A stretch of 64,000 nt of DNA from a virus (IMGVR_UViG_3300032038_000052:1-64000); one strand, 5' to 3'. Counted from the stretch's first letter, positions 17,720 through 64,000 are shown. Notes: generated by a model from the letters alone, not told the origin. Made by a program: numbers and translations.

Positions 17720-18346
17720 ATGAATAAAACAAAATAGATTGGATTAATAACTGAATTATCGTGCTAGTTATATCTTTCTTAGCTTGGGTACAATATTTGT
17801 ACTCCATTATGCGAAGATTGTAGATATGACATGATTGCAGATTTTAATGGTATATTAAAAAAAATACAAGTTAAGACATGTCGTGAAAATAATAATAAGA
17901 CTGGAATAGAATTTTCAACCACTTCGACAAGAAGCAACTCTAGTGAAATTGTTAGGTAGAAATATTCAGAAAATGATGTTGATTATTTTGCGACATTCTA
18001 TAATAATAAGTGCTACTTAATTAAGAATATCTATAGTAGCACATGTATTACATTACTATATGATGGGAATATCACTGGAAATGAGTGTATTCCAAAACAT
18101 CTTTCTGATTATGAATGTGAAAAACAGATTAAAAAAATATTAAATAATAATGAAGACACATTACCAAAAAGAGTAATATGCCAATATGATAAAAATTGGC
18201 AATTAATTGCAACGTATAATTCCGTAAGGGGTGCTGCAAGAGCACTTGGAGACGAATTAAAAAATGCACATATTGCCGATGCAATTAATGGTAGACGCAA
18301 AATGGCATATGGATTTTATTGGAAAGAAAATATAGATATATAGTAA
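17720..18346 (+). CDS. PD-(D/E)XK endonuclease with C-terminal NUMOD1-type DNA-binding domain (TAG=Gln)
   Basis: KQIGLITELSCQLYLSQLGY..P...RYD...KIQVKT open only with TAG=Gln; ICQYD...AARAL...AYGFYW C-terminus; ends TAG-TAA. Confidence 0.75.
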
Positions 18347-18372
18347 TTTAATGATTAAAAGGAGGTGCTACG

Positions 18373-19569
18373 GTGGCCGTAGTAAAACAAGAAAAAAAAG
18401 TCCCCATAGCACAAGTTCGGGCAGAAAATGAAAAGATGAAAAAGTTACTCGAGGATGGAGTAAGATGCATTGTCTGTGGGGTAATGAAAGACAAAAGCAA
18501 ATTTTATGTGAATACGAACCCTCGTTGTAAATGTGAAGTTGGGTGTGTTTGTAAAGAATGTGCTAGGAAAGTGGCTTTACAAGTTGATGATGACGGAATC
18601 GAGCATGGCGTTACTAAAGAGTCTTGCATAGAGGCACTTAAACTTTTAAATAAACCGTTTGTTAATTCCGTATGGGATTCAAGTGTATAGGAATCTGATA
18701 ACCTTGTTGCTGGGAAAACAAAGTCAAATCCTTGGGTCGCCTATATTAAAAATATCGCAATGGTCCAATGGGTTGGCATGGACTTCTTCGATTCTGATAT
18801 GTTCAAGAAAGGTGTTGTTGGTGGTGGACAATATGTTGTTAAAGAGCCTACTACTGCTGAGGATTTGTCTGAAGATGTAAGAACTACTTATGAAATTAAT
18901 AAGAAGACTACTCTTCGTTTTCTTGGCTATGATCCATTTGAAAATGAACCGCTTGAAGAACAGCCAATCTTATATGCTAAATTGGTAAGTTACTTTGATG
19001 ATTCTGTAAGGGATGACGGCTTAAAGCTTGAAGCCGTTATAGAGATTGTTCAAAGTTTCAAAGATATAAAAACAATTAATGATGCTATCTCAAAATATAA
19101 GAAACAGCTTGGGGAAAATCCGGCTGTCATTGCGACAATTAAGTCTCTTGCTGATACTAAGCAAAAGATGATTAATTCTGCACTAGCTCTTGCAAAAGAC
19201 AATGGAATATCAGTCAACCATAATAACAGTAAGAGTAAGGGGGCTGGAACTCTCAGTGGTATTATTAAAGAGATGTCTGAGATGAATCTTGATGACATAG
19301 AAATTAATACATTTGATTATGAAACAAATGCTGCCATATCTCAGATTATGGAGGCAAATTTTAAAAATCAGATGGAACAGCTTAACCCAGACGAAAATGA
19401 TTGGGAACGAGAGGTGCAGCATCAAGCAAAATTGCTACATAAATTATAGAAAGAAAGGGACGACGCTGTCGAATATTGTAGGCTACTCAAAAAAGAAAAC
19501 AAAGACTTAAAGGATTTTCTTATTGAGAAAAAAATAATCGATGAAGCGTTAAATGTGATAGATGAGTGA
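18373..19569 (+). CDS. Zn-finger-containing packaging protein, probable terminase small subunit (TAG=Gln)
   Basis: Fragments 18373-18690 and 18760-19449 are in one frame, joined by TAG; immediately upstream of TerL. Confidence 0.65.
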
Positions 19570-61353: not shown

Positions 61354-61420
61354 TGTTTCCTACATTTTACATGCAAAGGAGGCATTAATATGATTAAAAT
61401 AATGAAAGGAGGTGGCGCTG

Positions 61421-64000
61421 ATGAGTGTATTAGCAATGGGTTCAGTATCAGTAATTGATATTAATGATGGTGTGGGAATATCTTCTTCTGTTGTTGAATA
61501 TTGTGTTTCTGACTCTGGCACTACACCGCCTGGTAACCCTTTAACTGATGGAAGCGGTAATCCGATTATATCAAATAACGGGTATGTATTAACTGATGGC
61601 TCATGGTCTGCTACTCTCCCAACTGTTCCAGAAGGTTATTACCTTTGGACAAGAACACGTCTGGTAATGTCGGACGGAACATTTGACATGATATACACTG
61701 TATCTCGTGCGGGTGAGGACGGAGCGACTGGGGCCACAGGCGTATCAGTAGTCAACGTCATCCCCGAATACCGCCTCTCAGACTCTAGTAGTTCTATGAC
61801 TGGATCTGGCACAGGATATACTTGGTCAACAACCAAACCGAAGGTAGCCTCCGGGCAATACATCTGGGAGCGTCAGCGCAACTAGTTATCAGATGGCTCG
61901 ACCGTATACTCGGATGCCGTCTGTGACATTACGATGTCCGGGTTAGTATTTGATGTTAACGAGAACAAAAAGGTAATCACTCAGAAAGTCTGGTCAACTG
62001 ATATTACTACGTCTCTGAGTCAATACGACAGTTCTACCGTGTAGTCAATCCGTGATGATGTGACGGAATTAAACACTGACCTCACTGGCATCACTACCCG
62101 TGTCGGAACAGTTGAAACCAATCTTGAAACCAAGGCGGATGGCTCAACGGTAACGACTTTACAAAATGACTACTCCGCTTTTAAACAGACGATGTCCGGG
62201 TTTAAGACAACAGTCGAATCAACATATGCTCAGCTGTCAGACATTGATGGGTTAAAAGTCAGCGGTGAGAACTTATATGTAATCAAGGATTCCGTAACAG
62301 GATATCTTCATGCGACTAGCGGTGCAATATCCGCACAAAGCTCAACGTATAAGGAGTATACGTCTGCATATATTCCAGTTTCTCCAGGTAAGACGTATAT
62401 CATCCAATCGTGGGCAACACCTACCACTACTGGCGGGTCATGGCTTGCGTACCAGTTCTTTACAAGCGAATCAACAGACGGCAAAATCGGGTCAAGAACA
62501 GCCAAATACGGTAGTGATTCAGGCTCCGGCGTGGAAACAACCGCCGAGGGAATGGAACGCTTGACGTATAAGGTAGTAGCCCCTGATACTGCTCAGCACC
62601 TCAGGGTATCCTCCCGGTTATTCGAAGACGGATACGTCATGGTGGAACAAGCTACTATGGCATCTGAGTATGCTATTTCGTACAAGGACGTTGAAGACTA
62701 TGCGGATACTAAAATTTCCGCTGTTCGTACAATTGCCGAGCAAAACGCTGACAAGTTTTCATGGATTGTGCAAGACGGAAGTACTCAGTCAAATGTTCAA
62801 TACACGGCTAATGCGTTAACAGCTATGGCGGATTAGATTGATTTGACTGGTAAAGTCTCGTTCAGTTCGTTTGACACGGATACGCAGAATGCTATCACGT
62901 CCGAGACTGAGTTGATTATTGGTACTCAGACCTCCTCGACGAGTGCATGGACAGGTACGTCAACAAAGTTGCGGGAAATCTCTGTCGGCACACGAATCTC
63001 GTATAAATTGCCGTATGCTTCTACTAGCTCGGCGGTAACCCTGAATTTGACGCTCAACACAGAACTCACAACTGGTGCGAAGGAAGTTTATTACCTCAAC
63101 ACGACACGTCTGTCAAATCAGTACGCTGTCAACTCGATCATTCAGCTTATTTATGACGGCTCTGCATGGCGAGTCCTTAACCCGTATTCCGATGCGAATA
63201 CCTACGACAGGACACGTTATCAACAGGCAATCAAAGCTGGAACTCCTGCGATTGTTGCGGGAAATATCATTGTCGCCGGGGCTAATAATGCGGGAACATA
63301 TACGCATTTGAAACTCGGCAATGCTTTTGACACAAGCTACCCGATTTTATACGCTGAGAGTGCGATCAGTGCGGGCAGCACAGGAACTAATAACTATCTC
63401 ATTTACCCGGTGAATATTACGAATACTCAAAGTGGCACGTACACGGCGTATAGAGCGGTGTATATCAAGGGAACACTCTCAGGGACGACATTTACCCCTG
63501 TGAGCACGACCCCGTTAACGCAAACTGTCCCGACAACTGATGACGGGTATTACTATATTCTGCTCGGAACAACGTATAGCACGACTGGAATGTATTTGCT
63601 CGGTCAGCATGAAATCTTCCGTTATTACAACGATGGATTTAAGACGGTGTCTCAGATAGCGGCCGAAGCTGCGGTTGCGGCGGAGAATGCTCAGAGTGCT
63701 GCGGATGCGGCTCAGAATGCGATCGATACTAACACCGAGACAATTATCGGCACACAAACATCAAACACGTATTATTTCACTGGTACTGCTGAACACATTA
63801 CCGAGTTAACGAATGGGTTAACTATTCAGTACTTGCAACCACGGAGTGTCGGCGGTTCTCAGGTCGGTGCGACGTACACTACCATCTCAAGCGGTGCAAC
63901 AACAAATACTAACGGTGCGGTTCTTAACCTGACTCTCGCAGACGGAACTCAAACTGGGGACATCCCGATTTGGTATCAAGGCGTTGGCAGATTAACATCG
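61421..64000 (+). CDS. tail fibre/receptor-binding protein, truncated at window end (TAG=Gln)
   Basis: WSTTKP.V..GQYIWER fibre motifs, carbohydrate-binding-like domain ~62260-62660, duplicated IIGTQT module. Confidence 0.75.

Follow-up and report, generated by a model that had tools for sequence, protein, structure and literature searches.

The window analysed here, a stretch of 64,000 nucleotides, is taken from the viral record IMGVR_UViG_3300032038_000052 (positions 1-64000), a single 78.6-kb metagenomic contig with an estimated completeness of about 46%. The following features were assigned in it.

1-17505, no strand assigned: code-neutral early arm, conserved genes without internal TAG
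10158-12902, + strand: YonO-like single-subunit RNA polymerase, 912 aa (phrog_8308, 2.5e-91)
17720-64000, continuing to 78148 in the record, + strand: recoded late arm (packaging, head, tail, tail fibres), from in-frame TAG and coding density
17720-18346, + strand: PD-(D/E)XK and NUMOD-like homing-type endonuclease, the first TAG-dependent gene, 5 TAG (PF11645, 2e-19)
18373-19569, + strand: YonG-like protein, 2 TAG (phmmer to SPbeta YonG, 1.5e-10; relatives' orthologue PF27269 YonG_N)
19562-21481, + strand: terminase large subunit (YonF-like), 9 TAG (phrog_2, 4e-21)
21490-23004, + strand: portal protein (YonE position), 2 TAG (phrog_2739, 2.7e-72)
23235-24920, + strand: YonD-like head protein, 3 TAG (phmmer to YonD, 4.4e-10; phrog_3313)
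25464-26594, + strand: candidate major capsid protein (YonB-like), 1 TAG (phrog_4088, 2.6e-60; relatives' orthologue PF27364 YonB)
30612-31412, + strand: candidate tail tube protein (YomU-like), 2 TAG (phrog_2729; aligns to the start of the relatives' PF27173 YomU_Tube gene)
32455-33589, + strand: NifS/IscS-type cysteine desulfurase, TAG-free (TIGR03402, 3e-136; PF00266, 8e-78)
33888-33958, + strand: suppressor tRNA with anticodon CUA (ARAGORN; Rfam tRNA, 43.3 bits, full model)
34070-34957, + strand: HNH endonuclease, 4 TAG (Pfam and PHROG matches)
36988-53067, + strand: tape-measure protein, 5359 aa, 107 in-frame TAG (PF10145 at residues 1837-2044; phmmer to YomI, 1.6e-16)
53106-54329, + strand: distal tail protein (DUF6558), 5 TAG (PF20195, PF20753)
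54329-58849, + strand: minor tail protein, 1506 aa, 18 TAG, holding a 123-bp repeat (phrog_6211)
58864-61353, + strand: tail protein, 4 TAG (phrog_3267, 5.8e-44)
61412-64000, + strand: start of a tail/fibre protein of 3024 aa that runs to 70486 in the record, 10 TAG (partial alignment to relatives G001 and G003)

All + strand genes between 17720 and 78148, a span that runs past the window's end, are open only when TAG is taken as sense. The module begins where the original prediction had placed it, with an ATG at 17720 behind a GGA-rich ribosome binding site and a first TAG at 17735. Re-calling the + strand from 17.6 kb on with TAG as sense, the check proposed with that prediction, raised the coding density from 67% (code 11; 89 ORFs, median 114 aa) to 97% (32 ORFs, median 335 aa), and control re-calls with TGA or TAA as sense reached 69% and 72%, respectively. 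The 31 maximal ORFs contain 228 in-frame TAG and no in-frame TAA or TGA, and they terminate in 21 TAA, 10 TGA and no TAG, which bears out the claims that all breaks in the structural genes are TAG and that TAA and TGA are found only at gene ends. Two TAGs in the NifS frame were rejected as coding because both lie upstream of the true start at 32455, as judged from start codon and ribosome binding site; their removal leaves about 226 coding in-frame TAGs, about 188 of them inside the window. The claim that the whole module is recoded holds across the late arm but not for every gene, since NifS and the ORFs at 33586-33843, 26629-27195 and 35811-36386 are TAG-free. That late-arm TAG is an ordinary sense codon and never a gene terminator is thus confirmed as an observation, and its reading as glutamine (code 15) is supported by the comparisons described below.

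TAG makes up 28.7% of the Gln-type codons of the late arm, but its use is uneven. It is lowest in the capsid and portal genes (7-8% of Gln-type codons), with the capsid candidate, at 1 TAG in 14 Gln-type codons, the lowest among all TAG-bearing genes, and highest in tail-fibre and small genes (50-100%). The most highly expressed class, capsid and portal, thus uses TAG least, a sign of selection that we count in support of code 15. RNA-library contigs (run X22) are identical to 25248-31407, a match that we do not count as a sign of transcription since DNA carry-over may have had a part in it. In the early arm, 10 genes have TAG at 0 of 77 Gln-type codons (P=5e-12 under the 28.7% seen in the late arm), and the same two-arm pattern was found in the complete relative G003. 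The sole real gene ending in TAG is that of the early polymerase, whose end, TAG-GAC-TAA, provides a TAA backup two codons on and therefore safe termination under either code. With its TAG-free genes and this polymerase end, the early arm should be translatable by a host that reads TAG as stop.

The gene order is collinear with that of Bacillus phage SPbeta (NC_001884): yonO, (yonN/K), yonJ, yonG, yonF, yonE, yonD, yonB, then yomW, yomU, and finally yomI, yomH, yomG. Phmmer linked proteins of this phage directly to SPbeta YonJ (2.6e-20), YonG (1.5e-10), YonF (1.4e-8), YonD (4.4e-10) and YomI (1.6e-16), in the same order, and the corresponding genes of relatives carry the Pfam families YonG_N, YonD_N, YonB, YomW, YomU_Tube and YonJ_N. 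The 912-aa polymerase matches SPbeta YonO weakly (BLASTP over 373 aa, 18.8% identity, pairwise E 5e-5) and is 24.5% identical to the 'RdRP' of Enterocloster phage PMBT24; its orthologue in relatives has a weak match to PF05183 (RdRP), and no PDB sequence was matched when the polymerase was used as query. Its metal-binding motif, DFDSD at residue 585, lies at an offset corresponding to that of DNDGD at 535 in YonO, with Ser in place of the Gly of DxDGD. Collinear order, phmmer links, the Pfam families of relatives and the weak YonO match together agree with the original description of an SPbeta-like phage with a YonO-type RNA polymerase. Unlike SPbeta, which uses the standard code in a Bacillus host, this phage is recoded, with protein identities below 30%, a DFDSD rather than DNDGD polymerase motif and a tape measure of 5359 aa instead of 2285 aa (4039 aa of it alignable to G003).

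Bovine-gut runs from many studies contain this sequence again. Standard-code relatives exist with a terminase 67-91% identical, and the relatives that lie inside bacterial genomes are of this standard-code kind and belong to Lachnospiraceae MAGs, one of them on a 378-kb contig. A Lachnospiraceae genome holding such a relative encodes GlnRS (717 bits) and RF1 (528 bits). A capsid-protein search of 401 Lachnospiraceae genomes gave distant prophage homologues alone (25-35% identical, in 5 genomes), and the capsid candidate matches major capsid proteins of large Firmicutes siphoviruses by tblastn. The phage is probably a large Firmicutes siphovirus with a Lachnospiraceae host.

We used codon alignments to two sets of relatives to ask which residue TAG stands for. 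In five recoded IMG/VR relatives, the window's TAG codons align to Q in 75 of 268 cases and to TAG in 28 of 268. The profile of true Gln codons in the same relatives is alike (Q to Q 31%, Q to TAG 5%), with every other residue aligning to Q in at most 5% of cases. Q has a log-likelihood of -698, E one of -858. In seven standard-code loci, each with 0 in-frame TAG, the window's TAG codons align to Q in 76 of 177 cases (log-likelihood -410 for Q, -578 for E). This tabulation, likewise proposed with the original prediction, favours Q over every other residue by more than 160 log units in each data set. Among the standard-code relatives, Q occurs in at least one at 26 of 36 covered TAG sites, all 5 unanimous sites are Q, and the nearest of them, L121, whose terminase is 91% identical, shows CAG at 13 and CAA at 3 of 24 TAG sites. 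Both TAG sites of the YonG-like gene are CAG or CAA in standard-code relatives.

Single sites agree with these totals. TAG codons 47, 69, 218, 413 and 445 of the terminase fall in Q columns (119, 118, 116, 106 and 68 of 119 homologues, respectively). Codon 69 is the TAG at 19766 that had been named as evidence for glutamine (EFLDY-TAG-KYVFM), and the argument stands: Q is present in 118 of 119 homologues, 19 residues ahead of the Walker A motif GGKT, and standard-code relatives have CAA. The TAG at 20213, also in the terminase, is CAG in contigs from three other bovine-gut runs. In the 123-bp in-frame tandem repeat at 57440-57808, we reproduced the reported alignment of TAG 57485 with CAG 57608 and CAG 57731. 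From these comparative data alone we infer that TAG would be translated as Gln; the alignments, the terminase columns, the TAG/CAG polymorphism and the identity elements of the suppressor tRNA all point the same way.

The Gln-type CUA tRNA of the original prediction is present at 33888-33958, one of two tRNAs found here. In E. coli, GlnRS recognizes a weak or unpaired 1:72, G2-C71, G3-C70, G10, U35, A37 and G73. The phage tRNA, read off the sequence and the Rfam alignment, has this full set (U1.C72 unpaired, G2-C71, G3-C70, G10, U35, A37, G73). Its cloverleaf is normal, the CCA end is not encoded, and position 33 is C; U33 is near-universal in tRNAs, and C33 could lower efficiency. The classical E. 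coli amber suppressor supE, a tRNA-Gln with anticodon CUA that inserts Gln, has the same anticodon, weak 1:72 pair, G2-C71, G3-C70 and G73. However, supE arose by point mutation from a cellular tRNA and suppresses only partially, whereas the tRNA examined here is encoded by the phage, carries C33 and has to decode TAG almost completely.

Its closest matches are Gln(UUG) of relative G003 and Lachnospiraceae Gln(CUG), at 49 and 47 of 71 positions, followed by Trp at 46. Since the D arm is also found in phage tRNA-Arg(UCU) genes, overall similarity is no proof of a Gln origin, and an isotype inference from that arm was dropped as not diagnostic. An exact anticodon stem-loop search of IMG/VR gave 0 matches; a looser D-arm pattern search found 59 contigs and 31 CUA tRNAs of the same family. 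The tRNA belongs to a phage CUA tRNA family sharing this arm. Processing by a theta (HDV-like) ribozyme, which should start at G1 no more than 5 nt from the tRNA 3' end, was rejected as a candidate: a search of 33700-34300 gave no HDV-like match at E up to 10, and the base after the discriminator is T, although this test is rough because the theta motif is absent from Rfam. A terminator-like hairpin lies at 33858-33880, 8 nt upstream of the tRNA, which places the tRNA inside the late arm directly past it, a position that does not account for early expression. NifS, the ORF at 33586-33843 and the tRNA form an accessory island with no counterpart in relatives G001 and G003. The HNH gene just 3' of the tRNA is a mobile insertion, as contigs of other strains show the joins 33993-34964 and 33887-34964.

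Could the host itself read TAG as Gln, lacking RF1, so that the phage simply follows its code? The host assignment is no more than probable, and no anti-RF1 function was found in the phage, which leaves some room for this idea. But complete avoidance of TAG in the early arm would then be pointless, the phage carries its own CUA tRNA, and code 11 is in use among relatives whose terminase is 67-91% identical. Those in bacterial genomes lie in Lachnospiraceae MAGs, of which the genome examined has RF1. We know of no described bacterium with TAG as Gln, and we regard a code-15 host as highly improbable. An equally slight chance is given to TAG being mainly a stop with leaky read-through, in which case truncation would serve dosage control or attenuation and TAG would not be reassigned. 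The expected host RF1, the possibly weakened decoding by C33 and the avoidance of TAG in capsid and portal genes would fit such a device. Against it, essential single-copy genes have many TAGs ahead of conserved domains (9 in the terminase, 107 in the tape measure, 18 in the tail gene), no late gene is truly terminated by TAG, and at 0.9 read-through per codon a full-length tape measure would be impossible (0.9^107, about 1e-5).

That TAG is sense but specifies Trp, Tyr, Lys, Glu or Leu through a mutated tRNA, or pyrrolysine, is more improbable still. ARAGORN labels the tRNA 'Pyl', as it does any CUA tRNA. Bacterial tRNA-Trp also has G73 and G2/G3 and ranks third in similarity, and a Trp isotype was predicted for 19% of phage suppressor tRNAs in the theta-ribozyme study (PMC10879173). 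However, W is aligned to TAG in only 1 of 268 and 2 of 177 cases and K, E and D in at most about 9% each, whereas Q leads in both sets and takes all five unanimous columns; the tRNA, with its normal cloverleaf, has U1 as in Gln tRNAs, and the Trp tRNAs compared have A1. Damage, whether by prophage decay or by sequencing and assembly errors that would make the long frames illusory, has a negligible chance even for a single contig estimated to be 46% complete, because only one stop type occurs in frame (228 vs 0 and 0), relatives that are themselves recoded keep the frames over thousands of codons, bovine-gut runs from many studies yield this sequence again, and making TGA or TAA sense fails to restore the frames.

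The reading that we hold with high confidence is that of a bovine-gut siphovirus of the roughly 160-kb class, with an SPbeta-type module and a YonO-like polymerase, in which late TAG is read as Gln via the phage's own CUA tRNA. The window would then be about half of the genome. The tRNA at 33888-33958 would be the TAG decoder, and its identity set, matching both GlnRS recognition and the supE tRNA, makes charging with Gln by the host GlnRS the most likely route. The late arm would be transcribed by the YonO-like polymerase, and head, tail and homing-endonuclease genes would be completed only when the suppressor tRNA is available and RF1 has been outcompeted or put out of action, so that the code may act as a translational gate on the timing of late genes.

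With 107 TAGs in the tape measure, 95% read-through per codon gives 0.4% full-length product and 99% gives 34%, and the tRNA alone, competing with RF1, may thus not suffice. Searches for release factors (PF00472) and GlnRS/GluRS (PF00749) found none in the record (about 46% complete) or in three relatives, of which only G003 is complete. G003 is recoded and has no detectable CUA tRNA, so the mechanism in this clade may involve more than the tRNA. Tentatively, and with clearly less than even odds, the code change could be very recent, given standard-code relatives with a terminase 91% identical, and the clade could have an undescribed way of silencing RF1 or decoding TAG, coupled to YonO-type late transcription and a C33 tRNA; near-complete decoding would be needed with 107 TAGs in one essential gene.

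The novelty attached to the original prediction was overrated. Borges et al. (bioRxiv 10.1101/2021.08.26.457843) described the Agate clade of code-15 phages, with genomes of about 127-154 kb, recovered from the guts of cattle, pigs and tortoises, and predicted Firmicutes hosts. In their code-15 gut phages, recoding does not extend beyond the structural and lysis genes, the early ones being code-neutral; there are close standard-code relatives, recoded homing endonucleases and, in part of the genomes, a suppressor tRNA. Our phage fits the Agate clade in habitat, genome size and host phylum, a likeness by description, and shares with the code-15 phages of that study the early/late split, the standard-code kin and the recoded homing endonuclease, but no release factor gene was found in the record or the complete relative. 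SPbeta and YonO have 0 occurrences in that paper.

Babkin et al. (2023, PMC10607447) described Phass-1 of the proposed Phassvirus (OQ749652) and set its group beside Spbetavirus genomes. In Phass-1 the genes for terminase, portal, tape measure and fibres use TAG for Gln; the phage encodes CUA suppressor tRNAs and no aaRS of its own, and has a 3149-aa tape measure and a predicted Clostridia host. Our phage is similar in its late-gene TAG to Gln reading, CUA tRNA, very long tape measure and the lack of any detected aaRS. The two are nevertheless distant, as matches of the window to the first 50 kb of Phass-1 are confined to the capsid protein (4.7e-19) and one small protein, and Phass-1 comes from the human gut with 36 tRNAs, three of them suppressors, whereas ours comes from the bovine gut with two tRNAs and one suppressor. 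The crAss-like code-15 phages (Peters et al. 2022, PMC9523058) have the same reassignment and early/late split, but they are Bacteroidota podoviruses with unrelated gene content and a peptide-validated code, where ours is read from gene sequences.

Both the phenomenon and the proposed gating of late genes are thus already published, with code 15 known from large cattle Firmicutes phages (Agate) and the Phass-1 group, and the phage analysed here is a further example. It adds a well-documented TAG to Gln case in a large SPbeta-type siphovirus that is widespread in cattle. Annotation of this phage and its relatives under code 11 would shatter two thirds of the late genes, including the 5359-aa tape measure. 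Pairs of recoded and standard-code phages at 70-90% protein identity make a good natural series for studying stop-codon capture and the RF1 question, and the sharp boundary between code-neutral and recoded arms is likewise useful for understanding how a stop codon is captured and RF1 overcome.

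The window covers the initial 64 kb of one viral contig of 78,612 bp, estimated by CheckV to be ~46% complete; the whole genome is expected to measure ~160 kb. From 17.6 kb onward, the + strand offers only short ORFs under the bacterial code (89 ORFs, median 114 aa, coding density 67%), but long, tightly packed genes when TAG is read as sense (32 ORFs, median 335 aa, coding density 97%), the longest reaching 5359 codons. Control recodings with TGA or TAA as sense gave coding densities of 69% and 72%, respectively. Maximal ORFs between 17651 and 78148 contain 228 in-frame TAGs and no TAA or TGA, and the 31 late genes terminate in TAA (21) or TGA (10). 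The true NifS start (ATG at 32455, preceded by GGGAGG) leaves 2 of these 228 outside the coding sequence, on its 5' side, which gives a working total of ~226, ~188 of them inside the window. The original prediction, that amber is read as glutamine across the morphogenesis module, had proposed this very comparison of coding densities; the comparison and the in-frame counts both establish TAG as a sense codon in the late module, and position 17720, from which the prediction set out, is the start of the first TAG-dependent gene. An ORF of 90 codons at 32205-32477 (+) contains three in-frame TAGs behind a strong RBS (AAGGAG) and runs into the beginning of NifS, which itself is TAG-free; under the bacterial code this ORF would stop after 19 codons.

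Residue assignment was based on codon-by-codon gene alignments with relatives. Against five recoded IMG/VR relatives (portal identity 76-86%), TAG codons of the window were paired with a Gln codon in 75 of 268 cases and with TAG in 28. True Gln codons of the window showed the same behavior (31% paired with Gln and 5% with TAG), and no other residue paired with Gln in more than 5% of cases in this set. In a likelihood test with the substitution profile of each amino acid as one model, Gln scored 160 log units above Glu, the second-best residue. It was also best against each of the five relatives taken singly.

The second set comprised seven standard-code loci from human-gut and ruminant metagenomes and two Lachnospiraceae MAGs, with no in-frame TAG in ~20,000 aligned codons. 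Here TAG was opposite Gln in 76 of 177 pairs, and Gln was best by 168 log units. At least one of these relatives has Gln at 26 of the 36 covered TAG sites, and where at least four agree, as they do at five sites, the residue is always Gln; as background, the window matches such unanimous columns at 95%. Of 24 TAG sites compared with the nearest of them, L121 (on a 125-kb contig; identity 91% in the terminase and 71% across 3009 codons), 13 are matched by CAG and 3 by CAA. In the terminase, five of the nine TAG codons also stand where homologues most often have Gln (119, 118, 116, 106 and 68 of 119 homologues). These include codon 69 (nt 19766, EFLDY-TAG-K), 19 residues ahead of the Walker A motif GGKT; this codon occupies the usual place of the adenine-binding Gln of terminases, as had been predicted. 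The predicted tandem repeat is likewise present, with TAG 57485 aligned with CAG 57608 and CAG 57731, and TAG 20213 is replaced by CAG in contigs of three other bovine-gut runs. Judged from the sequence, both the observation and the interpretation of the original prediction are right.

The predicted Gln-type CUA tRNA was found within the late arm, next to two TAG-free genes:

32455-33843, + strand: gene for a NifS/IscS-type cysteine desulfurase and an 85-codon ORF, both TAG-free, immediately upstream of the tRNA
33888-33958, + strand: tRNA with anticodon CUA, 71 nt, matching the Rfam tRNA model over its full length (43.3 bits)

This tRNA has an unpaired U1.C72, G2-C71, G3-C70, G10, U35, A37 and G73, the set used by GlnRS. 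The same identity set is found in supE, and its acceptor features recur in a Lachnospiraceae tRNA-Gln(CUG). The most similar tRNA overall, by a small margin over tRNA-Trp, is the tRNA-Gln(UUG) (29116-29190) of G003, a complete recoded relative. Position 33 (window 33919) is C and not U, giving the anticodon loop CCCUAAC; within the same family, the 28 distinct phage CUA tRNAs from IMG/VR include two others with C33, and most have U33. CCA is not encoded, and a terminator-like hairpin lies 8 nt upstream. Downstream is an HNH endonuclease gene missing from strains of two other bovine runs (junctions 33887/33993 to 34964), and in one such strain the contig diverges right where the tRNA begins, on its 5' side. 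The island of NifS, 85-codon ORF and tRNA has no counterpart in G003 or in a second recoded relative, G001. CUA tRNAs of 88-93 nt with the same D arm, and with a long extra arm or an insert after the anticodon stem, are present in G001 (55784-55875, -) and at several IMG/VR loci (L060-L118); alignments with G001 nevertheless favor Gln. ARAGORN, relaxed settings included, detected no CUA tRNA in the whole 160,883 bp of G003, which has 257 in-frame TAGs in ORFs of at least 100 aa.

The early arm is code-neutral. None of the 77 Gln-type codons in conserved genes at 1-17505 is an internal TAG (P=5e-12 at the late-arm rate). The sole real gene with a TAG end codes for a 912-aa polymerase, which terminates properly under either code because it ends in TAG-GAC-TAA. 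G003 has the same architecture, TAG being nearly absent at 0-70 kb and abundant at 70-150 kb. The early arm and the boundary region also carry several RNA elements:

6417-6488, - strand: 72 nt that match bacterial 23S rRNA in its L1-stalk region (50.7 bits; model positions 2135-2206)
7481-7549, - strand: Pistol self-cleaving ribozyme (72 bits; gathering score 34.5)
13499-14087, + strand: full-length ROOL RNA (307 bits; gathering score 99)
17551-17607, + strand: tRNA-like element that lacks an anticodon arm and has the acceptor, D and T arms

The 23S rRNA match lies within a non-coding stretch, a tRNA-Pro(UGG) (14193-14261) is just downstream of the ROOL RNA, and a gene for a PD-(D/E)XK homing-type endonuclease directly follows the tRNA-like element.

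We infer a scheme of GlnRS charging, gating and sidelining of RF1. Early genes would be translated while the host still reads TAG as stop; the suppressor tRNA would then be made and charged, probably by the host GlnRS, after which the late genes would become translatable. The code would thereby control access to the genes for head, tail and homing endonucleases, a gating role proposed for other clades by Borges et al. (bioRxiv 10.1101/2021.08.26.457843). TAG makes up 7-8% of Gln-type codons in the capsid and portal genes and 50-100% in fibre and small genes, which is consistent with weaker decoding of TAG than of CAA/CAG. Efficiency is the weak point of this scheme: the tape measure gene has 107 TAGs, and computed yields of full-length chains are 0.4% at 95% read-through per codon and 34% at 99%. 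RF1 would have to be almost entirely sidelined. Neither release-factor nor synthetase genes were found in the 78,612-bp contig at its ~46% completeness or in G003. The top TAG share (50-75% of Gln-type codons) is that of the tail-fibre genes at 70711-78148 (9711-17148 of L124, a later stretch of the same record), which code for Laminin_G_3/ConA-like lectin and BspA-type LRR domains.

Gene order follows that of SPbeta from yonO through yomG. Window proteins were matched by phmmer to YonJ, YonG, YonF, YonD and YomI, and the relatives' orthologs carry the Pfam families YonG_N, YonD_N, YonB, YomW, YomU_Tube and YonJ_N. The predicted SPbeta-like context is supported, and the putative YonO-type polymerase shows a weak pairwise alignment to YonO (373 aa, E 5e-5; DFDSD here versus DNDGD in YonO); among named matches, the best for this polymerase is an 'RdRP' from Enterocloster phage PMBT24. 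The capsid protein matches large Firmicutes siphoviruses at no more than 29% identity. At 5359 codons, the tape measure (36988-53067, +) is more than twice as long as SPbeta YomI (2285 aa), which implies a tail of exceptional length. Many studies of the bovine gut have yielded metagenomes with near-identical DNA; a search of 401 Lachnospiraceae genomes with the capsid protein found no host for the phage itself. Standard-code relatives with terminases 67-71% identical are carried by Lachnospiraceae MAGs, one of them on a 378-kb contig, and that MAG encodes both GlnRS and RF1. Terminase homologs with intein-like insertions of ~350 aa (LAGLIDADG_3/Hom_end domains) are found in L032, a locus in a Lachnospiraceae MAG, and among the proteins P0020, P0064 and P0092.

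Code 15 is established in phages, with proteomic proof in crAss-like phages (PMC9523058). The Phass-1 group, with a tape measure of 3149 aa, was set beside Spbetavirus genomes by its authors (PMC10607447), a comparison that is the only explicit link between YonO/SPbeta and recoding in the literature we searched; Phass-1 itself, compared over its first 50 kb, resembles the window at the capsid level only. The Agate clade consists of large phages of Firmicutes, found in cattle and mixed in their genetic codes (Borges et al., bioRxiv 10.1101/2021.08.26.457843). The recoding phenomenon is therefore already known and our phage is a further member, possibly of the Agate clade, that stands out by some extremes, namely 107 TAGs in a single gene, a suppressor tRNA with C33, and the closeness of its standard-code relatives.
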